This document shows positions 7,572 to 58,127 of a DNA stretch of 64,000 nucleotides, piece after piece (the stretch's first letter is position 1; every line of letters starts with the position of its first letter). The DNA comes from Botryllus schlosseri (lineage: Eukaryota): contig CM119372.1 of assembly GCA_051294905.1 (NCBI GenBank), positions 29,824,001-29,888,000 of the forward strand, written 5' to 3'. Made by a program: the position numbers and the translations under genes. Below the pieces are notes generated by a model. It did not search any database, was not told the DNA's origin, and saw nothing but the letters and a program-made list of their open reading frames with translations.

Positions 7572-9632
7572 CAGGGCTGTGGAGTCGATAAATTTTATCA
7601 CCGACTGCGGCTCCGACTCCGACTCCACACATTTTGAATATACCGACTCCGACTCCGACTCCGACTCCTGAGTCTATAAACGTACCGACTCCGACTCCGA
7701 CTCCTGGGTCTTTAAACGTACCGACTCCGACTCCGACTCCCGACTCCGACTCCAGCATTATTACCAATTTACTTCGAAATTATATGACACATTGTCGGTT
7801 GAATGACTATCATACAACCATTAAACATATGCAAACATATGATTAACGGTGGCATGCTAAATTGTTTCATTGTGGCACAACTCGAATTATCCACTTTGCA
7901 ATTAACATGAAAGAAAGATTTGCTAAATATCCTTCCTTTTTCAAGTTTTTATAACATGGAGTCTCTAATATCCTGAAATGTATGAATCATTCAAATATGG
8001 CAGATATCCAATCCTGTACGATAAAAATGTAGAGGGTTGTAGATAAAAATCCAAATGTAGCTCTTGTGTATTAGTCAGCAACTAATAAAGAGATTGAACT
8101 TACTAATTTTGTCATTGCACATTATACTGATTACAAGCACACACACTCTTACTACTAATGGTATTGGTCATAAATGGAATTTAGTTAAGTAGTCAAAGAC
8201 CATAATAGCCTATGTCTAGTCTACATGTACTTAATCAAGGATTGGGATTTGCAGTATTTCTTAATCATTTGTTCGACCCAAACAGCTAAGCTACACTACA
8301 AATATTTTTAATTTTGTCAAGTGGGAAGCATCGTTTGGTCATATTTAGATCATTTTTGCAATTTTACAAAACCAGCCGATGCATTTGCTCTGTCACGGTA
8401 TCATGGTATAATTCCAAAAATTGCATCAATTTTAACTGCATCGCGAAAACGCATATTGCGATTTTCTTCCCCTGTGCAACTGAGTGGTAATTTGCAATTA
8501 ATGTCAAATTTTATCTATATCAGGGGTCGGCCAGAGGGACACATGAGATTTACGAACTATTGCGCGGGCAACTGGAATGTTGATAACCTTTTTTTAGTCG
8601 TCCGATAGGAGAGAACCGAATTTGGTAACATTGCAAACAAGACTTACGCTCTAAAATTGATAACAATTCGTCATGAAACTGTGCAGTGCGCAACCAGGCC
8701 GTGGTCGCGCCAAGCGCGAAATTTTTTTGCAAGATAATAACTGAATTATATCAATAAATATGTTGCTAACATACATTGGGGGTCGCATCTGTATACCACT
8801 GGGCTCATTTCGAAAGGACAGGATTACTCGACGTTTAGACATAGCAAAATTGACGGTATCAGTGATTATGTCTCTATCATTTTGTGCAAATATTTTGTCG
8901 ACGATCTCGTTGCGAGTGCACAAGCGAAGTAGCATGTTGGACGACACGTTATCTCCTAATTGCGAATATAGTTAGACTCAATTCTGTGAATAATATGTAT
9001 TTACAATTTTCAGAAGGGGGTCAAATACTAATGTAAGAAATCTAGTGACAATGAATAATGCGAAATAGGCCTACCGAGAAAAATTTCAAGTCAAATAAAT
9101 TTGCTATGAAAGATTCTACTTTTTGGTCATATACGAAGATCTGGGATAAATGTGGCTGGCCCCTGGATACGTCAATGCGTCAGAACTGTTGTTTTAGTCA
9201 TCATCAAATTTCGCGGTCATGCTAATCAAATTTTGGTTGGCCTTGCAATTGTACCTGATGTCATAAATAATTTCGAGAATTACCTCGCAGGCCACACCTA
9301 ACCTTCTCGTGTGCCAAATCTGACCTGCGTTAAACGGGCTGGCCGCACCTGATCTGTATGGTTATTAATAACAGTGATTGGTGGTACATAAAAATTCTAT
9401 TGAAAATTCTTTGAAAGCAAATGTTTTCATGATAGAGAAGTTGGAGTCGGAGTCGGAGTCGAAGTCAGGGTTATTCTCACAAACTCCGACTCCAACTCCA
9501 GTCAGTATTTTTCCCACGACTCCGACTCCGACTCCAGCTAATATAGTTTTTACGACTCCGACTCCGACTCCGACTCCATCAAGCGAAAATTACCCAGACT
9601 CCGACTCCACCGACTCCGACTCCACAGCCCTG
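7572..9632. mobile_element. hAT-type MITE with (GACTCC)n subterminal arrays
   Basis: TIR CAGGGCTGTGGAGTCG...CGACTCCACAGCCCTG, TSD CCCTATAG/CCCTATAA. Confidence 0.88.
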
Positions 9633-38907: not shown

Positions 38908-41625
38908 AAGATTTTTACATTGATATGGCCATTCTGTTGATGGGCATTAGCGGTTTGAAGCGAAACTGCTTCGTGATTTCCGTAATTAAAAAATTGGTTC
39001 TTAGTTATTTTCCAAATTTAGAGGTTTCACGTACCCCCAGAAAATGCTTCGCGGACCCAGAGGGGTGTAACCTGCAAGAGCAACCAATATTAAAATGATT
39101 GTGCGTTTTACATAGCCACCATTGCTCTGTCACAAGTAAATTGACCACAAACGAAGTGATCGGAGCTTACAGCTTACGTCTTCGTAAACTAGTATAGTAT
39201 ACTCAATACTTCTCATTTTGCTCTGCTCTCGCCCTAACCAAACATCATCTTTGATTTAAATAGAATTCGAATATAGTTTATATAGTCATCAACCATTGGC
39301 GCCAGGCATGAACTGCTGTATAACATGGTTGTGTAGGCATCAGATCAATTCGATTCTACTTTGAGGCTTCATCTGATATTCTCTATTTGGGTAATAATTG
39401 TGTAGCGATACTATACAGTATGTAGTTTAGGTAGTTTATGTCTACGTATGTGTGAGCGATACAGCGCCTTTTAGCAAGTATGCTTTTAACTATATATTCG
39501 TTCCTCGATTCAAAATGAATGACCACTCAATCTATATTTAAAACAGCCATCTAAATGCTATGACTTAGCGTTATCATGCCTCGTATTCTGAAAATGCAAT
39601 TTAATTTGAATTGTGATTGTCTCGTGACTTGACTCGAGTCACCTCCGAAAATCGAGTGACTTGACTTGACTCTACTCGAGTCAAAATGTACAATGACCCG
39701 AGATGACTTGTGACGCGAAGGTAGTGACTTGATCCCAACACTGGTTGGAGCCAGAATCGGAGTCGGTGCGTTTAACGAATCGGGAGTCGGAGTTGGAGTC
39801 GGTGTAAGTAGTGAGGGTACCTGAAATTGGCGCCGTCCAATCAAATTTCGCCACGCCGCCTTAATTGGCATGTCTACAGGACGCCCATTGCCACGTCACC
39901 TGCCGCACCTATAACACACCCATTGTCACATCATCATGTTAGAAGATTAAATTCCAATTTCGCGCAATCAATTTATGTGTATTTAAGACTATATATGATA
40001 CATAAGACCTCTGTAAATATTGAGAAATGGCATCATCACTAATTAATCAATGTTCATTTATTTCGAAAAAATAGCATACTATATCAGTAATAGCGTTAAC
40101 GTCACAAACGCATCCAGCACGACCAGACGGCGTGAAACAGCGCTTTCGCTCGATTCTTGTAGTCACCACATTTCATACGATTCAGTCCTTTTTATGTCAC
40201 TAGAATAAGGGTAATTAAACCGACAGTGAAACGCTGGCGGCGTCTTATAACGTAATAATGTAAGCTGCGTCGGGTGCTTCTCTAATGTTAGGAGCGAATA
40301 TAGTAGAAAGTCCACGTCTGGACACCTGTAAGCAGGTGTGCATACTACCGTTAAAACGCATAACAGAATTCACGCAAAATCGGTACTGCTCTGCGATAAT
40401 TTTGATCACTATGTTTTGATAATAACTTGCTTTAATGTTGTTCCATACCGATTGGGAAGATAGCACACCTAATTTCGTAACTAACTACATAATCCCTAGT
40501 AACGTAGTCAGACGCATAACGGAATTTACGCAAATTGGCATTGCTCTGCGATAATTTTGATCACTATGTTTGGATAATGACTTGCTTCCGAGAAATAAAT
40601 AACATTCATTATACGTTAGATGATACTTTTCCTGTATATTCTATTATGTGTATTTAGGGCTAATGCGTCATCACTATGTTGGCGACAGGCCTGGTTTGAA
40701 CACACTAATTTTGCAAATTAAACTTATCACCCACCACCGACACTCAATGAAGAGCACCCTGGAGCACCCACATAAATGCTCTACAATGCTTGACATATAA
40801 TATACTGAGCATATAATAAGCTGACAAAACTGATACTTGAGTACTCCGAAATGTACAAGTACTTTACCTTTACACGACGTTTTTGTAAAATGAATACTAA
40901 TGGTACGCGAATGAGAATGATCATATACTAAGCTCAGAGTTGGAAACTAAATGCATATGAAAATTTAACTACGTTTTCCCCACACGCATCAAATGCAGGC
41001 CTCCTCAAGTGTTTATGAGGCGGCTAATAGTTCGAAGGTTGTTGGTATGCAAGGACGTCACATAGAATTGTGGAGTTTTCTGTAAACTATAATCCAGTGA
41101 TATATTTTCAATCACTATACTTTAAGTAGGCAAACCCCAGGCAAGTTTCCTCTGATAAAAGCTGGAGTAATTCGTTATCCGTGAAATAAATAGATAACGC
41201 GCTATATGAGCGGTGTTACGATGACTGACAAATACTAATAATATAATATTAATTAATGTATAGAAGTAGCGATTTCGAACTACGTAAAAAGTTAGTATAG
41301 CTCACGCATTTTCCATTTTCAAAAGTCAAATTACTTATACAAAATACAAATACAAAATTACAAAATACTTATTTTATTAAAAATTGAAAAATTAAAAAAG
41401 AGCGAAAAATTACATTTTATCCCTGAACGCAACAAGAAAAATCGTATGAATTTAAACTATTTATGCATGACATAATAATAATTCTACTTGCACACTTTTT
41501 CACATTTTATAACACTTTTAGTAGTACTTAACAATTTCAGTTTTAAATAAAATTCGGAATATAAACTATAATCAAAAATTTCGGTAACCAATTTCGCGTA
41601 GGCTATGCATACAAACGAGGGAAGT

Positions 41626-42903
41626 GAAATACTTGTTCGCTTGAGCTAACCCGCAGCGCCTGGAGTGAAATTTTATAGTTCTTGTAAAAAGTTGTTTGTA
41701 CTTAATATATGTTTAAGGTATGTCCTACACATTCATGATTTCGTCCGAGTTTGTATTTTAGTAGTATATACTAATTTACGATACCGCATTTGTAATTTGT
41801 GCAAGAGTTGTATGCGCACAATATATGTTTATCATAAGTCCTACACATTCATGATTTCGTCCTAGTTTGAGTTTTAGAAAATATTATACCGACATCGCGA
41901 CATCTTTCAAAAACAAAACCGTGGTCAATGCTTAAGAGACCATTTTCGCTATTTTCCATCGCCATTCTGGACCGCGAAAACACATTGTACGATATAGATG
42001 AAACTTTGGAAGATAGCACACTCAATTTTGTAATGTATCTAGATAACTACTTTTATGAAACTCTTACATTTCTACTAAACTAATACACTGAATCTTGTGA
42101 GTTACGCATTTCATCATTGAACAACTTTAAAACTAACGCAGTTCTATGCCGACATTTGCGTGAATCTCTTTTGCGGGAGCGTAGCACATACCTATGCGTA
42201 GTCAACTTACTGGTGTAATTAGTTTCAACACTTTTACAACGATTTTTCTTGCTTCCTATAACATCCCACTCGAAGCCCTAGTTATTAGGCTATGATCTCG
42301 GCCTGAGCTATGTCTTGACTCCTACGGGACTCTGCAAATTGTTTCGATATATTCTGCCCGTTTTAATTTAAGATAAGGAAGCCCATTTCACTCAATGTAT
42401 CGATGCCTACGGTACTCTACAAAATTTTCTGATTAATTCTCCCTATGTTAATTTACCATAAGAAAGACAATTTGACTCCTAAAGTCCGAAATACTTGCTC
42501 GCTTGAGCTAAGCCGCAGCGCCTGGAGTGGAATTTTATAGTTCTTGTAAAAAGTTGTTTGTACACAATATATGTTTAAGGTAAGTCCCACACATTCATTA
42601 TTTCGTCCGAGTTTGTATTTTAGTTGTATATACTAATTTACGATACCGCATTTGGAATTTGTGCAAGTACAGGAATATCATAGTTTTGGTAACAAAGTTG
42701 TATGCGCAAAATATATGTTTATCATAAGTCCTACACATACATGATTTCGTCCTAGTTTGAGTTTTAGAAAATATTATACCGACATCGCGACATCTTTCGA
42801 AAACAAAACCGTGATCAATGCTTAAGAGACCATTTTTGCTATTTTTCATCGCCATAAGTCATTCTGGACCGCGAAAACGCATTGTACGATATAGATGAAA
42901 CTT
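41626..42903 (+). repeat. Direct duplication (~41626-42006 and ~42488-42903) upstream of Bcl-2 copy A
   Basis: GAAATACTTG...GATATAGATGAAACTT occurs twice in the left arm and once in the right arm. Confidence 0.85.
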
Positions 42904-42980
42904 ATGCAAATCCTAGGATCCTCATTTTCAAAGTAGCTTAGATTTCGAAACAAGCTCTGACTCGCTATTCTCCTCAAAGC

Positions 42981-45314
42981 ATGGAATTACCACGAGCATC
43001 ACCTTCGTTCACTGAAGAAAAGGATGAAATTATATCCAAAGTATATTCCTTGACCAGGAATTTTATCATGTACGAACTCGAAGGCTCATGCGTTAAGGTA
43101 AATACGAAAGCAGAGAGAACCTTACGTCGAGTTGGGGATGAAATGTTCGAGCGACATCGAACTGTCCTAAACGCAGTCTCCAAACGTCTCCGCTATAGTG
43201 ATATCGAAGTCAATGAAAAATACAAAGAATATTTACCCTATGAGCGAATGTTCCTGATGATAGCTGATGAAATTTGCAAAGATACCAAAGAAAATTGGGG
43301 TAGGATTGTCTCCCTTTTTGTGGTCGGTAGCAGAGTTGGATCAATTGTAATTTGTAATTGTAATTGAATGTAATTAATTACATTTTTCAATGTAATTGTA
43401 ATGTAATTGTAATTGAAGCATTTTTATTTTGTTCAATTGTAATTGTAATTATAATTTGACAAAAATTTGGCTCAATTACAATTTCAATTACATTAAATTG
43501 CTATTGAGACCTGACAAGCACAACATAAAATATTTGACTTATAATGCATTCTCTTTAAATGTCGACAAGGAATTTGGTGGATCCATTCGCGGAAGCCCTT
43601 GACTGCGCCCTTGCGGGCGAAGTTTTTTTTATTTTTACCGCTATGCTGGCCTCGGCTGCCATTGTATACAATTTTTAGATTATTAACCAACGGATGGATT
43701 CGCAACACGTGACTCACGATTGAATACGCCGAGAAGCGAACTGCTGAGCCGGCTAAAAGCAGAAGAATTGATAGTCCCATAGCTGGCGATCCAAGCGTCG
43801 AAATTTGATTTGTATGGTCCTAATCGGAAGCTAGTGTCGCACTGATTCCGCAATAAAAGTATATTTTCAGGCAATGGTACCACCCAAAATAGTCGTGAAA
43901 GTCTGGGAATCGGCATTGTTCTGAACAATCGCCGGGCGTAATTGGTAATTGTTTTGGTCATGCTGCTGCAGCGCTCTCACTTTTCAGAACAGTCGGCCTT
44001 AAACGGCTATTTTGGAGCAGTTACATTGCCCTGACGAGAATTTATTTTGTATTTTCGGAATTGGTACATCAATAGCTTACGATAAAGACCAGATGCATCA
44101 AATTTGGACGCATGGATCGCCAGCTCTAGGACTACAAAGTTTGCTGCTTTTAGCCTGCTCTGCAGTACGTTTGTCGGTGCATTCATCCGTGACTCACATC
44201 TTGTGCATCTATCCGTCGGTTGGCAATCTACAATACGATTTCAGATCACGATGCTGCATCGTTACTTCGTCTGGCTAACTAACCAGACCACTGGATATTA
44301 TATAACGTCTTATCTGACAAAGCATGGTTTTGTTTTCACTCCTCATCCTAATTCCTACGTCCCTCGATAAAAATAATATTATTTCTTTAATTATATACTA
44401 TATACGCAAATCCAACCCATGCATATATTATAATATTTTTTCAACGACATACTGCACCCTATCCTTAATCATAACCCATAGGAAATTAGGTAAATAACAT
44501 TTTACAATTACGTGAGCCATAATTACCGAGCATACAAAACACGCTTATATTACGTCACAATGACATCTTACAGAGCATACTAAGTACGCACATGAACACA
44601 TTTATTACTACACAATCTGAACTAGACTTGGATTGTTGTTAAATACGACGCTACGGTTGTCAAGGAGCACGGTTGAATTTATGATTATTCAATTACATGT
44701 TCAACAGCAGCAATTGTAATTGTAATTGTAATGTAATTGAAGCATGCAAGGAGTCATTGTAATTGTAATTGTAATTTGATATTTTTAGCATTGAGTAATT
44801 GTAATTGTAATGTAATTGAAACATGCATGAAAGTAATTGTAATTGTAATTGTAATTGAACTGAAATAATGTAATTGATCCAACTCTGGTCGGTAGCATTC
44901 TTGCTCGCAAGAACGTGGATGAACATCACGGGGAGCATATAGAAGCTATCATACAGACAGTCGGAAATTACATTGCTAGCAGAAGACTAAAGTGGATAGT
45001 GCAAAATGGAGGATGGGTAGGTGATTTACATGCTTTGCTTAGTATTTATGAATTATCTTTTAGCATGAGATATATAGTGTATCTGCTCTCCAGAGCCCGT
45101 ATCATCTCTCGATGATGAAACTCAGCTTTATCTTCCAATTCGATTCACGACACGATAACTTTCCTCCCTATTATCATTAAGGCTTCTATTTTTGTTGCAG
45201 GATGGCTTTGTAGGATTCTTTGATAATACCGCTTTCGACTACAATAAAGTTTGGAAGGGACTCGTGTTTTTCGGAATCGGACTGACATCTATAGCAATGA
45301 CATTATCAAGATAA
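42981..45314 (+). pseudogene. Bcl-2 family (Mcl-1-like) gene, copy A; 194-aa frame intact apart from a transposon insertion at the end of BH1
   Basis: Exon 1 is 42981-43330 plus 44896-45016, intron 45017-45200, exon 2 is 45201-45314. BH3 LRRVGDE, BH1 NWGRIVSLF, BH2 WIVQNGGW|DGF with the family-typical intron, hydrophobic C-terminal anchor, AATAAA at 45354. Confidence 0.9.
43331..44887. mobile_element. hAT-type MITE (CAGAGTTGGA, GTAATT arrays) inside the Bcl-2 exon
   Basis: TIR CAGAGTTGGATCAATT...AATTGATCCAACTCTG, perfect TSD GTCGGTAG. Empty site present in copy B. Confidence 0.95.
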
Positions 45315-45637
45315 TGGATGTTCGCATGTTTTTATCTCATGTAATATTTTAAGAATAAAATTCTTCATCGTTTAATCGCATCCATTTTACTGTAGGATGT
45401 ATAGAGTTTCTTCTGAGAATACTCGAAGGGTTGCCCCATATGGAAACCTTCTTTATACTTTTAATTTTTTAAATTTTTACAGCTACGTAAGGGAATTGTT
45501 AGGGTTACCCAGAATACGCTGCAGGTCAAATTTGATTTGATTACGAGCATTATAGCGACAGAGATTTACGATAGTGTAAAATAACCTACCTTACGACATT
45601 AAATTTCGTCTTCTCTCCAAGTGGAAATATCATGTTC

Positions 45638-45734
45638 TATAAGCATAAAAACATTCCCGCGCGCTCCTAAACCTAAACTTTTCGTAACCCTACCACCTAA
45701 TACTAAGACGCGCGGGAATGTTTTTATGCTTATA
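45638..45734. mobile_element. ~97-bp miniature inverted-repeat element
   Basis: TATAAGCATAAAAACATTCCCGCGCG...CGCGCGGGAATGTTTTTATGCTTATA. Confidence 0.75.
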
Positions 45735-46160
45735 CAACTCAGCGAATACCCATCGGCCTGCTCACTACATTTGAAAGATTCTCTCCACTATTGTGTATAA
45801 AAGAATATACTTCTCTTAGTAAGCAATTTCTCGTGAATTCCGAAGCACGTTGACGTGTGTTAACTTCTGTATTAGGTGATAATATCATTTTAATGTCTGA
45901 TAATGTTACTTGTCTAGTGATACAAACGTAAGCTCATATACTACTTTAAAATTTAATGTCTCACCAAATTTTATCCAAAACTGAAACTTTTAAGTACCGA
46001 TAAAGTACTCTAAAACCTAGTCACTTTTTACGTGGAGGGAGTACATAGCGGAGTACTTGTACAATGTGGAGTACTCAAGTATAGGTTTGGCCTGCTTGAG
46101 CTATACTTATAGAATCATTCCTGTGTCATAAACACTTGAGTAGTTGGTGCGTGTGGACAT

Positions 46161-47730
46161 CAGAGTTGGATCAATTACATTATTTCAGTTCAATTACAAT
46201 TACAATTACAATTACTTTCATGAATGTTTCAATTACATTACAATTACAATTACTCCATGCTAAAAATATTAAATTACAATTACAATTACAATCACTCCTT
46301 GCATGCTTCAATTACATTACAATTACAATTACATTACAATTACAATTACAATTGCTGCTGTTGAACATGTAATTGAATAATCATAAATTCAACCATGCTC
46401 CTTGACAACCGTAGCGTCGTATTTAACAACAATTCAAGTCTAGTTCAGATTGTGTAGTAATAAATGCGTTTATGTGCGTACATAGTATGCTATGTAAGAT
46501 GTCATTGTGACGTAATATGAGCGTGTTTTGTATGCTCGGTAATTATGGCTCACGTAATTGGCAATGTAAAATGTTATTTACCTAATTTCCTATGGGTTAG
46601 GATTAAGGATAGGGTGCAGTATGTCGTTGAAAAAGTATTATAATATATGTACGTGATGGATTTGCGTATATAGTATATAATTAAAGAAATAATATTATTT
46701 TTATCGAGGGACGTAGGAATTAGGATGAGGAGTAAAAACAAAACCGTGCTTTGTCAGATAAGACGTTATATAATATCCAGTGGTCTGGTTAGTTAGCCAG
46801 ACGAAATAACGATGCAGCATCGTGATCTGAAATCGTATTGTAGATTGCCAACCCACGGATAGATGCGCAAGATGTGAGTCACGGATGAATGCACCGACAA
46901 ACGTACTGCAGAGCCGGCTAAAAGCAGCAAACTTTGTAGTCCTAGAGCTGGCGATCCATGCGTCCAAATTTGATGCATCTGGTCTTTATCGTAAGCTATT
47001 GATGTACTAATTCCGAAAATACAAAATAAAATCTCGTCAGGGCAATGTAACTGCTCCAAAATAGCCGTTTAAGGCCGACTGTTCTGAAAAGTGAGAACGC
47101 TGCAGCAGCATGACCACAACAATTACCAATTACGCCCAGCGATTGTTCAGAACAATGCCGATTCCCAGACTTTCACGACTATTTTGGGATGGTACCATTG
47201 CCTGGAAATATACTTTTATTGCGGAATCAGTGCGACACTAGCTTTCGATTAGGACCATACATATCAAATTTCGACGCTTGGATCGCCAGCTATGGGAATA
47301 TCAATTCTGCTGCATGTAGCCGGCTCAGCAGTTCGCTTCTCGGCGTATTCAATCGTGAGTCACGTGTTGCGAATCCATCCGTTGGTTAGTAATCTAAAAA
47401 TTGTATACAATGGCAGCCGAGGCCAGCATAGCTGTAAAAAAAAACTTCGCCCGCAAGGGCGCAGTCAAGGGCTTCCGCGAATGGATCCACCAAATTCCTT
47501 GTCGACATTTAAAGAGAATGCATTATAAGTCAATTATTTTATGTTGTGCTTGTCAGGTCTCAATAGCAATTTAATGTAATTGAAATTGTAATTGAGCCAA
47601 ATTTTTGTCAAATTATAATTACAATTACGCAAAATAAAAATGCTTCAATTACAATTACATTACAATTATATTGAAAAATGTAATTAATTACATTCAATTA
47701 CAATTACAAATTACAATTGATCCAACTCTG
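46161..47730. mobile_element. Second, inverted copy of the CAGAGTTGGA MITE
   Basis: Same TIRs, own TSD GTGGACAT, near-identical reverse complement of 43331-44887. Confidence 0.95.
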
Positions 47731-48211
47731 GTGGACATATAACTACTTGAGTACTTTGAAGAAGTCCATATACTTCTCTGCTCAACATCTCTGAACGGTA
47801 GAAGTGGAGATATAGTCTACAAACATATTCAGTCAGTTACTTACTCTGTAATCGCTATTGCATAAGTAAAAAGTTGGTATTCAGGGGTCTATTTTTTGTT
47901 TAATACTGAAACAGTCTTGAAGTAGAAACAATCCTATATCACAAACATTCGAATATTTTCTGTATGTAGGAAAAACCTACTTGAGTACTCAGTACTACTC
48001 TACTCATCATCTCTGAACGCTAGAGGTGGAGATAGTCTACAAACATTTACTTACTCACTTTGAAATCGCTACTTGTACTTATATTCGAGAAGAATTGCTC
48101 GACGTTGAATACCATCCGATAGCGTTTATGATTCTACTTTTACTTCATAGAATATATAGTTATAAAAGTAAATAGTTTTATGATAATCTACATCTTCAAG
48201 CTGAAAAGAGG

Positions 48212-50477
48212 ATGTACCATCAATTAGTACTTACGGATCATGATGAAGTGAAAATTTATTATGGGCTCTATCACCAAACTATGACTGAATTGGACATAAA
48301 TAATATCGCGAATTCTCTTATTCGGCAATCTCGCGTGTATGAGTTAGAATTTCGTCAATGCCATCTCAATGAAAACCTCGTCAAGATTCTATTTGATACA
48401 ATTCGTGGATTTGAATTTGAGGTAAACGCCTTCACACATTCCGCTCGTAGCCATTGATCATTATAAATTCACGTTCAATTTAAGTATATGTTATCCGTAA
48501 AATATTGAGATACAGCTTTATCGTTATCGCATTGTTCTGTATTACTAATGTGTTAAGGCGCGAATTGGTGGTATCGCAGAGAACAATGCTTATTTGCTAC
48601 TGGTATAGGCATTAGTCTCGATAGCCTTACTAGATAGACTATAGTCAGAGTTGATCAGTGTTAAGATGTTCATAGATCATTTAGCGTTTTATGCGTTAAG
48701 TTTTGCGCTCGTTCAGGTCGAAATGAGAAAACTCAGCGTTACAGCACACAACGACATTGCGAAACTCATCCCATTAATCTGTGAGCTGATGAAGGAGTGT
48801 GCTTCGACGGAGCTCAATCTGCAAGAAAGTGGTGGATCCGAGGATTTTCTGATTATTTTGAGTAAACTTATACAGCACCATCAGGTATTGGTGATGGAAA
48901 AAGCTAGGCGCTAATCTAGTATAGAACCTATCGAAGTGATATTTCCTAATACCTCATTTCCGTAGGCGAAATTGAAAAACCTCGATCTCAGCTACGCAGA
49001 GAACATTAACTTTACGCAACTCGGGACTATTATTTCGAGTGATCTAACATATTTGTCAGTTGTGAACTCGCGCTTGCAGTCAAAAGATTTCATTGCTATG
49101 CAGCTCGAAAACTTTAAGGTCTGCGCGATTATTGCTGGGTACGGTTTTTATTGATCAAAGTCTGTATGAGCAGCTGTGTAGAGATGGATGAGGGAAATTC
49201 TAGTTTCATCTTAGCACATTTAGCCTATATTATGACGTGAGTGACTAGACAACATATTTTCTGTTATAAGTTTGAATTTTTTTATGTCTGATCATTGCTG
49301 ATCGTAAATTTACAGTTTCCGAAATTTTTTAGCTCCAATATCTTGACATCAGTTACAATCAGCTGGATGAAGAGTGTATGATCGCGCTGCCTGCCTTACT
49401 TTGTAAAGACAAAGGGGTTACTCTTATCATGAAAGGATGTGACCTTACACCCGAGAAAATTCACGCTTTTGAAAGTTTTGGTGATATCGGGGTACTGAAT
49501 CGTTTCTATAGTTTTGTGGATCATTTTGAAGTAAATTGGTGGATTTATAGGTTGAAAGCCTTGATATGAGTTACAATACCGATATGGAACCGGGAGGCTT
49601 GAAAGAAGTTGGATGCTTCGTAAGAAAGCATTACACGAAAACAGTTCGACTTTCAGCTTGCGAATTGGATGAAGACTCACTAATCTCGTTAAATAATGGT
49701 CTCGGAATTTATGAGTTGATCATTTGAAATATATCTGTTTTGTTTTCTAACTGAAATAATCAATCACAGTGTAATGCTTATGTGAGTTTTGGTAATATTC
49801 AAGCATGACATTTCATTGATCGATAGAATTGTCATCATCAATAAAGTGCTTCTGATCACGAGCTTCATTATCTTCTTCGGTGTTGCATAAGTTTTGCTAT
49901 TAGGAGTAGAAATCGCAAAAATTTGCTCAACCTTCGGTAAATAATATAATATAAATCTATTACAGCCTTCGAGCCGTTTGTAGTCTCGTAAACTATCTGA
50001 ACATCACACCATGTTTTAGCTGCATTCGCTGGATTTAAGTAGAAATCCTGGCATTTCATCCTGCTACAAAACAGTAACTAAAGTCCTGTGCAATTCAAGT
50101 GTGGAAGAATTTAATCTGTGTAATTGCAAGATGCTTTCCCTGCAAATCAGGAATCTGAGCGAAGAGATGGGAAAGTAAGTACAGTAAGATCTTTCTGCTC
50201 AATCATATATCCCGATTTAGCGATGTAGTTCGTTTCTGTATTTCTAAATTGATATAAATCTCCTATTATTCAATTAACAGCTAAAAGCAATCGACCTCAG
50301 TGATAGCGATAGAACGAGAATCGATGAGAAATACGTGAATTCCATTCAGAGAGCTTCGTGACATATAATCCTGAATGTCGCAAAGTCAAACTAGTCTTAC
50401 CGCGCTTGAGTGGGGAAGATATGAAGACCTTGAGAAAACAACTGTACTCACCCTGTACGGGGATATTTTCCGAATAA
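48212..50477 (+). pseudogene. NLR/RNI-type leucine-rich-repeat-only gene, 7 exons, 3' part degenerate
   Basis: Exons 48212-48421, 48717-48884, 48966-49118, 49333-49491, 49551-~49715, 50020-~50174, 50281-50477. Later exons open with LxxLDLSxN motifs (LKNLDLSY, LQYLDISYN, VESLDMSYN, LHSLDLSRN, LKAIDLSD). First four introns are clean phase-0 GT-AG. After that the phase-0 donor is lost at 49716, there is a phase conflict at ~50175 and a frameshift at ~50350. TATAAAA at 48161. Confidence 0.8.
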
Positions 50478-51053
50478 ACATGTATCTAGATGAGAATTAG
50501 GAGATTTTTCCTTTACTTGATAATGCTTTGCGTGAGCGCTACGGCCTGATAAGATTATAGGTAGGTAGGCCTACATATTAGCAGAAGTTAACACATGTCA
50601 ATGTAACTTTCCGCATTTCTGTCTATATAGATTCGGAATCCACCAGAAATTGGTTACTATGTGAGCGAAGTATTCTTGCAAACCAACAGCACAGGCAAAT
50701 TTAAATTAGTTCGGTATGGACAATATTATAGAACATGATATTTCCACTTGGAGAGAAGACGAAATTTGATGTCGTAAGGTAGGTTATTTTACACTATCGT
50801 AAATCTCTGTCGCTATAATACTCGTAATCGAATCAAATTTGACCTGCAGTGTATTCTGGGTAACCCTAACAATTCCCTTACGTAGCTGTAGAAATTTGAA
50901 AAATTAAAAGTATAAAGAAGGTTTCCATATGGGGCAATCCTTCGAGTATTCTCAGAAGAAACTCTATACATCCTACAGTAAAATGGATGCGATTAAACGA
51001 TGAAGAATTTTATTCTTAAAATATTACATGAGAAAAAAACATGCGAACATCCA

Positions 51054-51808
51054 TTATCTTGATAATGCCATTGCTATAGATGTCAGTCCGATTCCGACAA
51101 ACACGAGTTCCTTCCAAACTTTATTGTAGTCGAAAGCGGTATTATCAAAGAATCCTACAACAAAAATAGAAGCCTTAATGATAATAGGGAGGAAAGTTAT
51201 CGTGTCGGGAATCGAATTGGAAGGTAAAGCTGAGCTTCATCATCGAGAGATGATACGGGCTCTGGAGAGCAGATACACTATATATCTCATGCTAAAAGAT
51301 AATTTATAAATACTAAGCAAAGCATGTAAATCACCTACCCATCCTCCATTTTGCACTATCCACTTTAGTCTTCTGCTAGCAATGTAATTTCCGACTGTAG
51401 TATGATAGCTTCTATATGCTCCCTATGATGTTCATCCTCGTTCTTACGAGCAAGAATGCTACCGACCACAAAAAGGGAGACAATCCTACCCCAATTTTCT
51501 ATGGTATCTTTGCAAATTTCATCAGCTATCATCAGGAACATTCGCTCATCGGGTAAATATTCTTTATATTTTTCATTGATTTCGACATCACTATAGCGGA
51601 GACGTTTGGAGACTGCGTTTAGGACAGTTCGATGTCGCTCGAACATTTCATCCCTAACTCGACGTAAGGTTCTCTCTGCTTTCGTATTTACCTTAACGCA
51701 TGAGCCTTCGAGTTCGTACATGATAAAATTCCTGGTCAAGGAACATGCTTCGGATATAATTTCATCCTTTTCTTCAGTGATCGAAGGTGATACTCGTGGT
51801 AATTCCAT
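51054..51808 (-). pseudogene. Bcl-2 family (Mcl-1-like) gene, copy B
   Basis: Inverted paralog of copy A. BH3 Gly to Arg (LRRVRDE), 1-nt frameshift near 51400 giving a stop before BH2, 13-nt deletion removing the original exon 2 acceptor near 51160. Confidence 0.92.
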
Positions 51809-52981
51809 GCTTTGAGGAGAATAGCGAGTCTGAGCTTGTTTCGAAATCTAAGCTACTTTGAAAATGAGGATCCTAGGATTTGTATAAGTTTCATCTATAT
51901 CGTACAATGCGTTTTCACGGTCCAGAATGACTTATGGCAATGAAAAATAGCAAAAATGATCTCTTAAGCATTGATCACGGTTTTGTTTTCGAAAGATGTC
52001 GCGATGTCGGTATAATATTTTCTAAAACTCAAACTAGGATGAAATCATGAATGTGTAGGACTTATGATAAACATATATTGTGCGCATACAACTCTTGCAC
52101 AAATTGCAAATGCAGTATCGTAAATTAGTATATACTACTAAAATACAAACTCGGACGAAATCATGAATGTGTAGGACCTACCTTGAACATATATTGTGTA
52201 CAAACAACTTTTTACAAGAACTACAAAATTTCAATTCAGGCGCAGCGGGTTAGCTCAAGCGAACAAGTGTTTCACTTTACTCATTTGTATGCATAGCCTA
52301 CGCGAAATTGGATACCGAAATTTTTGATTAGTATATATTCCGAATTTTATTTAAAACTGAAATTGTTAAGTACTACTAAAAGTGTTATAAAATGTGAAAG
52401 AGTGTACAAGTAGAATTATTATTATGTCATGCATAAGTAGTTTAAATTCATACGATTTTTCTTGTTGCGTTCCGGGATAAAATGTAATTTTTCGCTCTTT
52501 TTTAATTTTTTAATTTTTAATAAAATAAGTATTCATTTTACAAAAAACGTCGTAATTTGACTTTTGAAAATGGAAAATGCGTGAGCTCTACTAACTTTTT
52601 AGGTAGTTCGAAATCGCTACTTCTATACATTAATTCAAAGTATTTGTCAGTCATCGTAACCCAGCTCATATTGCGCGCTATCTATTTATTTCACGGATAA
52701 CGAATTACTCCAGCTTTTATCAGAAGATACTTTCCTAGGGTTTGCCTACTAACAGTACTTGGTTTAGATTAATAAAAGTATAGTGTTTGAAAATAGATCA
52801 CTGGATTATAGCTTACAGAAAACTCCACAGTTCTATGTGCCGTCCTTGCATACCAACAACCTTCGAACTATTCGCCGCCTTATAAACACTTGAGGAGGCC
52901 TACATTTGATGCGTGTGGGGAAAACGTAGTTAAATTTTCATATGCATTTAGTTTCCAACTCTGAAAGCAAGCTTAGTCAAT

Positions 52982-53728
52982 TATTATTATTATTATAGGT
53001 AAAAACATTGGCATGAGTGGCGCTTATCACAACTGAAGGCTTTTTGCGCCACGGACAGAAACAAGTTAAACAGAAAGTTCATAATATATAACTGAGATAG
53101 TTAGGCCTACACATATGCACATAAAAAGGTTTTACAATATTCCTCGAGTCGATCTAACATATTCAACAACATATCGCAGTGCTTGTGGATCAGTCAGTAG
53201 GGTTCGCATGTCGAAATTTACATTCTTAGACTCTGCATGACGTCGTAAGCGTTCTCTTTGATAGCGGTATTTTCTACAATTCATGAGATAATGCTCTACG
53301 GTTTCCTCAATACCACATGCTTCGCACCGCAGTTGCGAGTCGATGCATCCAATCTTGTTGAGATGGTGGTTTAGTCTGCAATGCGTCGTTCTTAACCGCA
53401 GCAAAATCGAATTTCCCAACCTTGTATCCACTTCCGATAGTCCGTCATGTACCGAGGGTCGCAGATCTTTGTACGCTCTCCCAGTATCTGTGGATTGATA
53501 AATGCGGTCCCACTCATCTTTGCAGCTCTTTAGCAAGCACGACCGTACGTCGGCGAGTGGGATAGCATGATTCCGACGTATGTGTGTATTAGCAGCTCCC
53601 GTCCTAGCTAATTGATCTGCAGATTCATTACCGCGTATTCCGGAGTGTCCAGGCACCCATACAAACGATATGGTGATTTCTGCTGTTCGCAACTGATGGT
53701 TCAGCTCAATAATTTCATTCACCAGTGC
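52982..53728 (-). mobile_element. 5'-truncated non-LTR retrotransposon (I/Nimb-like): RNase H C-terminus plus CCHC finger
   Basis: ORF 53132-53722: WVPGHSGIRGNESADQLA...LRLRTTHCRLN...CEACGIEETVEHYLMNC. (TAA)n tail, 12-bp TSD AGCTTAGTCAAT. Confidence 0.93.
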
Positions 53729-53789
53729 AGCTTAGTCAATGATCATTCGCGTACCATTAGTATTCATTTTACAAAAACGTCGTGTAAAG

Positions 53790-55589
53790 CAGTGGTTCTC
53801 AACCATTTTCACCTCGCGGACCGGTAAAATTTCAAAAAATATTCGGCGCACCGGTGGACTTTCAGAAATTGAAATCAACCCAAAATGTAGAGTATGTAGC
53901 CGTTTTTTGCGAGTTTATGGTGCTAGAGAGTGACATTTTTAGGGTTTTAATCGTAATTAATTATGTTCGTGATGGTATCCATGAGATTTTAAGGTGGTGA
54001 GTCTGCTGAGTCGAGGTAAAATTGCCTTTTCCAGATAAACGTGCTACCGCTGCGAGTCGTTTACAGTCTTTCGCGCCGTATGCCGTGGATTTAACCGACC
54101 ACGCCAACTCGAATAATTTTCTTCTCTTCGACAATATCGAGAGAAGAAGTGTTTTGGAGTCGAACCAAACACCTTGTCGTGCTACCTTACTGAATGGTCA
54201 TTGCTCAATACCACCAAGCGTAGGCTACTACGGATACAATGCGCCGCACGGAACACCTGACAACAGCTATACCTGGCCAATGGCCATACACAAAACCAGT
54301 GCCGAAAAGGTACGTCGTCAGTCAACCCCCCGAAAAACGTTCGTCTTGGGCCCCCACAGTTATATGGATGCTTTCGTCACTACTTGTGAGCACATCCATT
54401 CTACTTAGTGTAGGCAGAGAGTTTACGTTGCCTAATTGAGCGAAGCGTGGGAATTTTCTATAATTCATGACTGAATCCGTCAATAATACTGCGTACATAT
54501 TGCTATAATTTTTTGTATCATCCTCTCAGAATTGTTATCAGCAGATTCTCCGGTAGAGCTGAGGGAGGCGTCGTCTTGGAAAATTTATGGCATGTAATCA
54601 AATTAAACTTATTCGGGCTGGACTGTTGCAATAATTACTTCGTTGCATGTCATTTATTCATGACCTACTGTCTGTTATATGGCGAATAGATATTGAAATA
54701 GCTCAAGCGTAGGCTATCTTAGTAGCTATCTTAGTACTAAGATAAAAGAAGCACACGAATAAAAATTGCTATTTCTGCACTGGAAAATAACTTTTCTCTG
54801 TAGGATGGCGTTTTGCTGTGGGGTACAGTTTGCCACGACAGCAAATTTCGGCTCCAGCCATTTAGGTGCCTATGGACAATCTGACATATGTATATCGAGG
54901 TTTTCGGTCTGCCAAGGGTAGCTGTTTTCGGCCGAGGTTTTCTCGCTGCCAAATCTTTGGCACACTTTTCGCAGTCCCGTGTTAGCTCAAACTTCATCAT
55001 GTGTAGGTGCTTCGTGGCGCGGCAAAGGCTGACGCCGAAAATGCCAGATCTTACAAATCATGCGTATTTCTTGGCGGAAGGGCACCCAATATTCAATATA
55101 TTCAGTGACACAAAATTGGACAAAGAGTGAAAAATTTTGAAAGAGGTTGGATGAAGTTTCAACTAAAATAATCTATAATTTATGTTCATTCACGGAATAA
55201 CTTTGGGCTACCTTCAAGCTCGGTCCCTATCAATTACTGGTTTGTGGTCCGGCAGTTACTAGAGGGCCTAGGCCACTGCACAAAATGAATGAATGGAAAA
55301 CCAATCATCGTGCAAACTGCGCATTTTAGCGAGTCAGCTTGTACTTGTCGCTCGCATGTCGTCAAATGACACGGCTTGGACTTCAAGTCAAATGTTTCCA
55401 GATCTAATATTACCTCACGAAGTTCTCAATCAGTTTATATTTTGATGTTTTATTTATTTTATCAATAGACATGCCTTCAACATAATGTATCTGGAAATTA
55501 AGGTATAAAATTGTAAAATGCCTGACGGACCGGCAGGAAAGTCGTCGCGGACCGGCACCGGTCCGTGGACCGGCGGTTGAGAACCATTG
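53790..55589. mobile_element. hAT (Buster-like) MITE in the right arm
   Basis: TIR CAGTGGTTCTCAACC...GGTTGAGAACCATTG, TSD GTGTAAAG. Empty site near 40870. Related to ~18250-20318. Confidence 0.9.
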
Positions 55590-56532
55590 GTGTAAAGGCA
55601 AAGTACTTGTACATTTCGGAGTACTCAAGTATCAGTTTTGTCAGCTTATTATATGCTCAGTATATTATATGTCAAGAATTGTAGAGCATTTATGTGGGTG
55701 CTCCAGGGTGCTCTTCATTGAGTGTCCGTGGTGGGTGATAAGTTTAATTTGCAAAATTAGTGTGTTCAAACCAGGCCTGTCGCCAACATAGTGATGTCGC
55801 ATTAGCCCTAAATACACATAATAGAATATAAAGGAAAAGTATCATCTAACGTATAATGAATGTTATTTATTTCTCGGAAGCAAGTCATTATCCAAACATA
55901 GTGATCAAAATTATCGCAGAGCAATGCCGATTTGCGTAAATTCCGTTATTCGTCTGACTACGTTACTATAGGGATTATGTAGTCAGTTACGAAATTAGGT
56001 GTGCTATCTTCCCAATCGGTATGGAACAACATTAAAGCAAGTTATTATCTAAACATAGTGATCAAAATTATCGCAGAGCAATACCGATTTTGCGTGAATT
56101 CTGTTATGCGTTTTACTACGGTAGTATGCGCACCTGCTTACAGGTGTCCAGACGTGGACTTTCTACTATATTCGCTCCTAACATTAGAGCAGCACCCGAC
56201 GCAGCTTACATTATTACGTTATAAGACGCCGCCAGCGTTTCACTGTCGGTTTAAGTACCCTTATTCTAGTGACATAAAAAGGACTGAATCGTATGAAATG
56301 TGGTGACTACAAGAATCGAGCGAAAGCGCTGTTTCACGCCGTCTGGTCGTGCTGGATGCGTTTGTGACGTTAACGCTATTACTGATATAGTATGCTATTT
56401 TTTCGAAATATATGAACATTAATTAATTAGTGATGATGCCATTTCTCAATATTTACAGAGGTCTTGTGTATCATATATAGTCTTAAATACACATAAATGG
56501 ATTGCGCGAAATTGGAATTTAATCTTCTAACA

Positions 56533-57647
56533 CAGGGGTGGGCAAACTACGGCGGGCTACCGCGGGCCGCATGGGGCCCTCCACACCGTTCTATGTGGCC
56601 CGCGAGAGTCCAAAGAAACTTATTAAACATATTGAATAAATGCGCAATAAAAATCGCAATAATGCAGCGAATTGATTAAACTTTGTCTTAGCATATTTCA
56701 CCATGATAATTCTAAGACAGTTGTTCTCAAACTGGGGGCGCACCCCCTTGGGGGCTCGAAAGCATCTGAAAAAAGGGGCGAAGCTGAGCTCAACTGAATA
56801 AATTTTCGCGCTCTGCGCGATTTACATACAATTCCTAATTGTTGCACTGTATTTAGACTGAATTTCATATTTAAAAATCTCTCATCCACAGTCGTAACAT
56901 TCCATGCCATCAAACTATCAGTTCGGTTTACTAGCATCCTGGTTGCGTTTTGTTATATGCCGATAAGGGAGCACGGAATCTTTTACCGTAATACCACTGT
57001 TGTAATGAAAATACTTCCTATATTATTTTTACGTTAAATTTCTGGCGCGACAGCCCGATCTCAAGGCCCACGCAGTTCCAAAGGTTGCAACTGCTAAACA
57101 TCACAGAAATCCTGAACGAGATTCACATAATTCAGATTAAGAGAGTGATGATTTCAGATTGGCCAGTCCAGTGATGTGCTTATAAAAAGCGATTCGCGCG
57201 TGTCTTGCTTGGGTAGATTATGGTAGTCATGTTTATCTACACATAGGCTGGTATAGAAGCGTGTTTGAAGCTAACATGGTTATGATGCTGTCAGCATTGT
57301 GTGTCCTCGAACTGAACCAAAAGTGGAATTAGTAAATCTATAAACAGATCGCTGCTCATAGATATAAATTTCAATCCTGGTCTAAGAATTGGTACAACCG
57401 ACTTTCATCTCTATAGTTTTCACAAATAGGTTATTGAGGTCGTCGAGCCTGTGAAATCTCGCCACTGTTTTTGACGCGTGTACGAGATCACCAAAGCAAT
57501 GTTTAGATTGTTTTAAATAAGCATATATATTATCTCCATGTCCTCACTATATAGATCTATATAGAATCCCAATTTAACATAGTGGGGCCCGCGAATGGAT
57601 TCAAATGTTGAATGCGGCCCGCGAGCTCAAAAGTTTGCCCACCCCTG
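56533..57647. mobile_element. hAT (Buster-like) MITE in the right arm
   Basis: TIR CAGGGGTGGGCAAACT, TSD TTCTAACA. Empty site near 39940. Confidence 0.92.
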
Positions 57648-58127
57648 TTCTAACATGATGATGTGACAATGGGTGTGCTATAGGTGCGGCAGGTGACGTG
57701 GCAATGGGTGTCCTGTAGGCATGCCAATTAAGGCGACGTGGCGAAATTTGATTGGACGGCGCCAATTTCAGGTACCCTCACTACTGGTGTATTGAAAATA
57801 TCTGGAGTCGCAGTCGGAGTCGGTGGTAAAACGTACCGACTCAACAGCCTTGTTTACGTCACACGGTTAAGACTATGACAGGCTCTCAGACGTTAGCTAG
57901 CTTCAACTGGGTCCATTGCGATTATAATGAATTGTTTGAGCTTGTTTGCCATCTCGTGGCCTCCGGTGAACATTGTGGCTTCTTAAGAATACTGGAATCG
58001 TGCACGCGTACCGGGCCCAAGTAAAAGTATATTAATTTGGCAGACGCATGAGATTCCAGATTCCAAATTCACGTGGTGCAATATTTTTATTTGTTGGTCG
58101 AATTCGTCATAACATATCAACATAGAG

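Follow-up and report, generated by a model that had tools for sequence, protein, structure and literature searches.

This study focused on a leucine-rich repeat (LRR) gene, and on the mobile element that carries it, in a 64,000-nt stretch of the genome of Botryllus schlosseri (assembly GCA_051294905.1, contig CM119372.1, positions 29,824,001 to 29,888,000 of the forward strand). This whole stretch is called the window, and positions without a contig name refer to it. The gene lies on the plus strand at 48212-50477 and consists of seven phase-0 exons that encode only leucine-rich repeats, of the type seen in ribonuclease inhibitor (RNI) and in nucleotide-binding, leucine-rich repeat receptors (NLRs). 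It occupies the loop of a palindromic element at 39807-57785. Taken together, the data make it probable that the element is an old, decayed palindromic satellite of Maverick transposons, that the LRR gene was captured from the host and spread with such satellites, as a selected and spliced gene, and that the copy in the window is dead. Mavericks, or Polintons, are now viewed as endogenous viruses, and a few are known that carry homologues of Bcl-2 or of inhibitor of apoptosis (IAP) proteins. The present genome goes further, in that defective, palindromic derivatives of one Maverick end have multiplied a Bcl-2-like gene to hundreds of candidate places, and that a subset of these derivatives appears to have spread an intact, selected, spliced LRR-only gene with NLR-type repeats.

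The LRR gene and its genome-wide family

The gene in the window recurs, with 94-95% identity, at 40 or more places in the 495 Mb of genome that were searched. Exon 4 gave 147 genome matches of 100-53% identity, with stops in nine. Exon 7 of an intact copy gave 150 matches from 164 candidates, of which 126 were whole and open, 12 had stops and 17 were partial. The exon-7 matches represent 83 loci, and copies are found on both strands at 55 of these. In all, the LRR family numbers 150 copies or more, distributed over about 83 loci and mostly intact.

Ratios of nonsynonymous to synonymous change (dN/dS) between subfamilies, at a synonymous divergence (dS) of about 0.5-0.6, were 0.26 (bootstrap range 0.20-0.35), 0.31 (0.23-0.41) and 0.32 (0.25-0.45). 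For the youngest pair of copies the ratio was 0.50 (0.25-1.10), which is indistinguishable from neutral. Exons were also better preserved than introns in both comparisons made, with identities of 82% versus 73% and 76% versus 64%, and with 1 versus 180 and 0 versus 213 gap columns. Judged by these ratios and by the scarcity of gaps in exons, the family is under purifying selection.

Two RNA-seq runs with the same species label, X22 and X18, supplied 36 and 18 reads, respectively. In X22, seven reads with seven distinct starts, mapping to an intact copy, crossed from exon 4 into exon 5 precisely at the GT..AG borders of the model, and in X18 three reads passed from exon 4 into an exon-5-like start. 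The LRR family is transcribed and spliced. Two further runs, X1 and X3, which had been guessed to be RNA, yielded contigs that span introns, as DNA would, and were not used as evidence. With its many copies of 94-95% identity, the constraint on its coding sequence and the spliced reads, the gene in the window goes far beyond a chance arrangement of reading frames. An earlier note on this DNA, made from the letters alone, had named the preservation and expression of the LRR frame in other copies as a point to examine, and had allowed that these copies might lack the gene or hold nothing but decayed fragments. What was found instead is a family that is mostly intact and constrained, with 126 of 150 last exons open and with reads spliced from exon 4 to exon 5.

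The intact gene model, taken from copy L003, has exons of 210, 168, 153, 159, 165, 168 and 195 nt with GT/AG borders throughout, and specifies 405 amino acids (aa). Inspection of this translation by eye revealed neither a signal peptide nor a membrane segment. In the window, exon 1 (48212-48421, 210 nt, 70 aa) encodes an N-terminal cap and the first repeat, and had no Pfam match. It is followed by exon 2 (48717-48884, 168 nt, 56 aa), exon 3 (48966-49118, 153 nt, 51 aa), exon 4 (49333-49491, 159 nt, 53 aa) and exon 5 (49551-49715, 165 nt, 55 aa), and introns 1-4 have AG/GT borders. In an alignment of exons 2-6, each exon forms a unit of two repeats, and the consensus is LxxLDLSYN...LxLxxCxL. 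Pfam matches to exon 4 (LRR_1, 0.0031; LRR_6, 0.021) were each below the cut-off. Upstream, a TATAAAA at 48161-48167 on the plus strand ends 45 nt 5' of the ATG at 48212, and is retained in all seven of the other aligned copies.

The damage to the window copy was read against seven genomic copies (L002-L008) from three loci. The donor of exon 5 (49716-49717) is TT, compared to GT in 7/7 other copies, and because this donor has been lost, exons 1-5 read open through to a TGA at 49725-49727. Exon 6 (50020-50183) is 4 nt short at its 3' end relative to all seven copies compared there and has an in-frame TAA at 50176-50178. Exon 7 (50281-50477) carries two extra nucleotides, in an AG run at 50348-50353, which shift the frame ahead of the family stop codon at 50475-50477. 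The window copy is a pseudogene with three lesions, in the exon-5 donor, exon 6 and exon 7. What the earlier note had read from the letters was confirmed, namely an LRR-only gene built of phase-0 two-repeat exons (exons 2-5 being 153-168 nt), a TATAAAA about 45 nt before the ATG, a frame open from exon 1 to the TGA after exon 5, and damage to the later exons.

The palindromic carrier and its Maverick relatives

The inverted-repeat map and an alignment of the termini define a whole mobile element at 39807-57785, with ends AGTAGTG...CACTACT (in full, AGTAGTGAGGG...CCCTCACTACT), bordered on the left (39801-39806) and right (57786-57791) by a perfect 6-bp target-site duplication, GGTGTA. Within the window, an uninterrupted paralogous repeat unit at 7608-7668 represents the empty site. 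The window element was compared with LRR elements on C3, C17 and C10 (two loci), and where the ends of these could be read, on C3, C17 and C10a, AGTAGT ends and perfect 6-bp duplications were again present, with the distinct sequences CCGAGT, CAGGTG and GACCTC, respectively. The target of the satellite insertion in the window was one unit of a repeat made up of (GACTCC)n blocks. This repeat, with its blocks arranged around a short spacer, is found at 7608-7746 and 9481-9577 and in the flanks of the element at 39750-39806 and 57786-57830.

The left arm (39807-45642, plus) pairs with the right arm (50726-57785, minus) at 92-98% identity per block, and between them is a unique loop (45643-50725) that holds the LRR gene. 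Both arms have been invaded by other transposons. A 1.6-kb foldback transposon interrupts the left arm at about 43333-44956, and a second copy of it lies in the loop at 46161-47730, upstream of the LRR gene. According to the repeat map the two (43331-44887 and 46161-47730) are 97% alike, inverted relative to each other and each internally inverted-repeated. The site of the second copy is empty on C17, where the sequence corresponding to window position 47743 is joined straight to that of 46159. In the right arm, a fragment of a long interspersed nuclear element (LINE) at about 52965-55589, which includes an RNase H open reading frame (ORF) at 53135-53731 (Pfam RNase_H, 6.8e-08), and another transposon at about 56533-57647 leave gaps in the arm pairing. 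In other elements the arms are 99.7-99.96% identical, compared to the 92-98% per block seen here; the window element is old and decayed.

All 140 stop-to-stop ORFs of at least 45 aa between 39700 and 57900 were scanned with Pfam, and the only matches past the cut-off were three pieces of Bcl-2 and the RNase H. The scan detected none of the Maverick core genes (polymerase, integrase, packaging ATPase, capsid, protease), so the element is non-autonomous. It also detected no NACHT or death-fold exon, in agreement with what the earlier note had seen. The two Bcl-2-like genes lie one in each arm. The left gene (42942-45112, plus) is split by the foldback transposon into 42942-43364 and 44864-45112 (Pfam Bcl-2, 1.8e-09 and 1.4e-07), and the right gene (51243-51847, minus; 4.1e-11) has lost its frame past about residue 149 of the ORF. 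As the LRR gene and both of the adjoining Bcl-2-like genes are broken, nothing functional is made at this locus.

The origin of the arms was indicated by an autonomous Maverick at C8:25.66 Mb. About 3.3 kb inward of its terminus, AGTAGTGAAGG, lies an intact Bcl-2-like gene (Pfam, 8.1e-21), followed by a Pox_A32-type ATPase (8e-09) and then an integrase with rve and chromo domains (2.1e-14). The arms in the window are collinear with this Maverick, with identities of 74% at the terminus (about 127-133 nt), 84% over an internal block, 84% over 647 nt of the Bcl-2 gene and 80% in the stretch behind it, all blocks falling between 74 and 88%. The likeness stops immediately before the ATPase gene. 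Each arm in the window is, therefore, a copy of a Maverick terminal accessory region, and the two are inverted relative to each other. Mavericks are abundant in this genome, and among the best 144 of 770 candidate integrase matches seven are preceded, in the same orientation, by a Bcl-2-like match at a distance of 2.65-3.03 kb. These 144 integrase matches form classes of about 95, 74, 65 and 49% identity, with almost all frames being 333-359 aa, and members of the 49% class may belong either to Mavericks or to chromodomain retrotransposons. No match to PF03175 (protein-primed polymerase) was found in the genome, a result that is uninformative, since Mavericks with ATPase and integrase exist there.

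Maverick ends have the form 5'-(AGT)2...(ACT)2-3' and are flanked by 6-bp duplications, as described in the text available from PMC8097293. The window element shares with Mavericks (adintoviruses) these ends, the inverted termini and the 6-bp target duplications, but the core genes are theirs, and the element is, almost entirely, a palindrome of one Maverick end. Its intron-bearing LRR-only gene is a further difference, a feature that goes unmentioned in the available portions of PMC8097293 and PMC8502044. The word 'leucine' does not occur in PMC8502044, as far as the text outside its supplementary accessory-gene lists (Figs S1 and S2) is concerned, and a literature search at the level of titles and the beginnings of abstracts found no LRR-only gene described earlier for Mavericks or for elements derived from them.

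The accessory genes of adintoviruses do include homologues of Bcl2 and IAP, according to the same available text (PMC8502044), and in the B. schlosseri genome Mavericks carry the Bcl-2-like gene as an accessory. It occurs at 407 candidate places, and among the best 150 that were scored most were far from any LRR copy. Most of the 151 matches listed form inverted pairs, with 3-7 kb between the partners. In nearly every case they align to the right Bcl-2-like ORF of the window only up to about residue 149-150, with an open frame of 187-224 aa. The gene is intronless, its translations contain BH1 (NWGR) and BH2 (W..GGW) motifs, in the forms NWGRIVSLF and WIVQNGGW, and the closest solved structures are the pro-survival proteins Mcl-1 and A1, which made up all 57 Protein Data Bank (PDB) matches (best, 4.5e-05). 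The pairing with the LRR gene is facultative. Only 13 of the 151 listed copies adjoin an LRR copy, counted from the LRR side 13 of the 150 exon-7 copies listed have a Bcl-2 neighbor in the list, and Bcl-2 is absent from three of the five mapped LRR elements (C3, C10b and C11). The earlier note had described an LRR gene co-carried with Bcl-2; that the two share a mobile, virus-like element stands, but the association is not a fixed one and every copy of either gene in the window is broken. As the Bcl-2-like copies are cargo of Mavericks and satellites, part of any apparent 'expansion' of Bcl-2 in this genome is transposon cargo, and large Bcl-2-like or LRR gene expansions annotated in such genomes should be viewed with the same caution. 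Cell-death genes seem to be recurring cargo of Mavericks in B. schlosseri.

Another autonomous Maverick, on C11, has a Pox_A32-type ATPase (1.1e-09) and an rve and chromo integrase. Near its right end, at C11:4522794-4523564 on the plus strand (L028:6794-7564), is an ORF with a caspase domain (Peptidase_C14, 4.2e-13).

NLR affinity and origin of the LRR gene

When the exon units were used as a profile to search a protein database, 22 proteins were matched, eight of which contain NACHT. The top three named matches, and an unnamed match in second place, were of NLR type, the best being fish NLRs (1.1e-34, 1.2e-19 and 3.6e-16). Lower matches included four LRRC31 proteins (6.1e-11 to 3.1e-05), one ribonuclease inhibitor and one RanGAP. 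The earlier note had reckoned with the case that non-NLR LRR proteins would be nearest, which is not the order observed. Among solved structures the profile matched a designed LRR protein, ribonuclease inhibitor (4per, 2.1e-06) and the LRRs of NLRP1, NLRP5 and NLRP4F. The two top structural matches, designer pentatricopeptide repeat proteins, were rejected as spurious, each being matched over only 17 residues, at 3 bits per repeat. Pfam recognized LRR_1 in 11 and LRR_6 in seven of 18 exon units, all under the cut-off, and word-index protein searches with exon 1 (against longer proteins) and with the Bcl-2 ORF as queries gave no match.

The host itself provides a comparison, as a genome search for NACHT exons returned 94 matches among 224 candidates. 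Downstream of a NACHT ORF on C14 are three LRR exons of 165, 168 and 168 nt, in phase 0 and starting with L-x-x-L-D/N-x-S-x-N, and their identity to exon 5 of the LRR gene (28-37%) is above that found among the LRR gene's own exons. The NLR-like exon architecture that the earlier note had pointed out was thus met again downstream of a host NACHT ORF. Host NLR LRR domains and the LRR family share two-repeat phase-0 exons of 153-168 nt with the start L-x-x-L-D-x-S-x-N. Of the NLR hallmarks, C-terminal-type RNI LRRs in such exons are present in the LRR gene, while NACHT and an N-terminal effector domain (death-fold, TIR and so on) were absent from the Pfam scan of the element ORFs. NLRs have both of these domains; the LRR family has neither, but has a first exon and a C-terminal tail of its own. 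Ribonuclease inhibitor and LRRC31 are LRR-only, cytosolic proteins of about 400-560 aa with alternating repeats, and in these respects the LRR family appears comparable. Their profile scores are lower than those of the best NLR matches, and neither is known to be transposon-borne.

The most distant paralogue examined, at C2:3.62 Mb, has the same seven exons, which are 41-64% identical exon by exon, with long introns and a first exon that bears a Met. No NACHT ORF was found within 5.6 kb upstream of it. A second LRR match is located 60 kb away on the same strand, at 3.68 Mb, and these paralogues lie outside inverted pairs. Given the gene's own first exon and tail, and the LRR-only paralogue at C2:3.62 Mb, the captured gene would have been an LRR-only host gene rather than a fresh truncation of an NLR, and the truncated NLR fragment envisaged in the earlier note was not borne out. 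We conclude that the repeats are, by their sequence, of NLR type, and that the gene probably entered the satellites from the host already LRR-only and with its introns.

At one locus a family copy and a NACHT gene are neighbors. On the minus strand of C16:8626001-8635500 (L025), a 460-aa NACHT ORF that has first LRR exons of its own lies 3 kb upstream of a damaged member of the LRR family in the same orientation. This family copy retains the upstream region typical of the family, but its in-frame ATG is missing and a stop interrupts exon 7. Finding one such adjacency by chance has rough odds of ~0.2, and the arrangement may be fortuitous, reflect an insertion, or be a remnant of how the LRR gene originated. 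A second NACHT gene, at C8:3.07 Mb, showed no LRR exon in the 6.5 kb downstream.

Mode of spread and possible role of the LRR gene

The favored explanation can be put as follows. Each arm would comprise a terminal accessory region of a Maverick, from the AGTAGT terminus through an intronless, Mcl-1-like Bcl-2 gene, and the loop would hold a seven-exon gene for a 405-aa, presumably cytosolic, LRR-only protein. This gene would have been taken up from host genomic DNA together with its introns, and then amplified with the satellites. Mobilization of the satellites may depend on Maverick integrase supplied in trans, and this would account for the 6-bp duplications. Copy-back in the course of protein-primed replication may have produced the palindromes. 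Lacking NACHT and effector domains, the LRR protein would be a binding module, and it may compete with or restrain host NLR-type sensing beside a survival-type Bcl-2. That it does interfere with such sensing is a tentative suggestion, and rather unlikely. It is somewhat less probable again that satellites have long kept an NLR-mimicking LRR-only gene of their own which, alone or together with the Mcl-1-like protein, would blunt NLR sensing or cell death whenever a helper is active. If this were true, it would place an immune-evasion module on the hitch-hiker of a virus, in an animal germ line and in more than 100 copies.

A number of observations weigh against a satellite that spread an NLR-type gene. 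The link to a helper was followed in detail for one autonomous copy; a second Maverick, at C11:4.51 Mb, has only an AGTAGT-type end in common with the satellites, and its termini showed no detectable likeness to theirs. Its outermost ends are unlike on the two sides, and no clean duplication could be read. No LRR copy was found inside an autonomous Maverick among the best 144 of 770 integrase candidates and the best 150 of 407 Bcl-2 candidates scored. The termini of the diverged subfamilies were beyond reach, owing to an assembly gap in one case and to a palindrome that continues past the end of the sequence examined in another, and their long association with satellites may be supposed only from the layout as inverted pairs. 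The profile represents a repeat unit and so is biased to proteins with many repeats, and it also matched LRRC31, ribonuclease inhibitor and RanGAP. Lastly, the RNA support is thin, consisting of 36 and 18 reads from two runs, with a single junction and exon 1 uncovered.

Several other explanations have been considered. Kaposi's sarcoma-associated herpesvirus (KSHV) ORF63 is a viral NLR mimic that resembles the NACHT-LRR part, and Bcl-2-type inhibitors of NLRP1 exist. Common to these and to the proposal of the earlier note is the concept of a virus-borne, effector-less NLR look-alike, or a Bcl-2 homologue, that blocks an NLR. ORF63, however, is NACHT-LRR-like and belongs to an infectious herpesvirus, while the LRR family has only LRRs and resides in an endogenous satellite. 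As a complete explanation, in which the LRR-only and Bcl-2-like proteins act as a single cassette to suppress both innate sensing and cell death, to the benefit of the Maverick or satellite, we regard the decoy as rather unlikely. It would accord with the NLR-type repeats, the purifying selection on element-borne LRR copies, the similarity of the Bcl-2-like protein to pro-survival Mcl-1 and A1, and the large host repertoire of NACHT matches (94 of 224 candidates) as a target. The caspase-domain gene (4.2e-13) on an autonomous Maverick makes cell-death genes a theme, and the available text of PMC8502044 lists Bcl2 and IAP homologues as accessory genes of adintoviruses. Yet the LRR gene and Bcl-2 occur together in a minority of elements (C3, C10b and C11 being without Bcl-2), none of the matches listed placed the LRR gene inside an autonomous Maverick, and all three genes at the window locus are broken. 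A slightly better, though still not a likely, alternative is that an LRR-only host gene came by chance to lie in a satellite loop and has since been passive cargo, with no gain to the element, the selection being at the level of the host (for example, on an immune-receptor-like family) or a leftover. Gene capture by non-autonomous DNA transposons is common, the introns are of host type, the LRR-only paralogues at C2:3.62 and 3.68 Mb lie on one strand and not as inverted pairs, and the youngest pair of copies (dN/dS 0.50, 0.25-1.10) is compatible with neutrality. Captures of the Pack-MULE type, by non-autonomous DNA transposons, likewise place host genomic DNA with introns between transposon ends and amplify it, but these are mostly unconstrained fragments that decay, whereas the LRR family is a whole gene, apparently under purifying selection in most of its copies. 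Its dN/dS values of 0.26-0.32 at a dS of ~0.5-0.6, nearly indel-free exons (1 and 0 gap columns) and 126 of 150 whole, open last exons speak against mere cargo, and constraint over about 83 loci would be hard to reconcile with selection by the host on each copy.

It seems improbable that the LRR protein helps the satellite to parasitize its helper, by binding the replication, packaging or integration proteins of the Maverick as in other virus/satellite systems. The LRR gene is, consistent with such a role, the sole block detected by blastn as common to the window copy and the diverged C11 paralogues, and it lies in or beside the loop. The proposal is, however, pure conjecture, LRRs being generic binders, and many Bcl-2-bearing satellites are apparently without the LRR gene. 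Least credible of all is a non-mobile origin, whether host immune genes were amplified segmentally as a palindrome or the structure is an artefact of assembly. Near-perfect palindromes, with arms 99.7-99.96% identical, might raise this suspicion, as might an LRR array that adjoins an assembly gap, but it is contradicted by the defined AGTAGT ends, by perfect 6-bp duplications that differ between the window, C3, C17 and C10a elements, by the paralogous empty site and by the collinearity of the arms with the end of an autonomous Maverick. A Maverick satellite that captured and spread a host LRR gene, therefore, remains the preferred reading. It offers a testable case of what the accessory genes of virus-like transposons do in animals, and of how pieces of the NLR system are copied, moved and possibly turned against that system.

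The layout of three further LRR loci was also noted. In a diverged element at C8:28321501-28335500 (L033 and L034), the border between arm and loop falls inside LRR intron 2, and one LRR copy is complete while its mirror copy is without exons 1-2. On C11 (L017), an assembly gap of about 100 N, at ~11758989-11759089, adjoins two LRR arrays, and the layout there is not to be trusted for this reason. At C10:4934624-4980323, matching LRR copies stand on opposite strands 45 kb apart, with an integrase match 16 kb off, an arrangement that could represent one very large element, palindromic or composite in structure.

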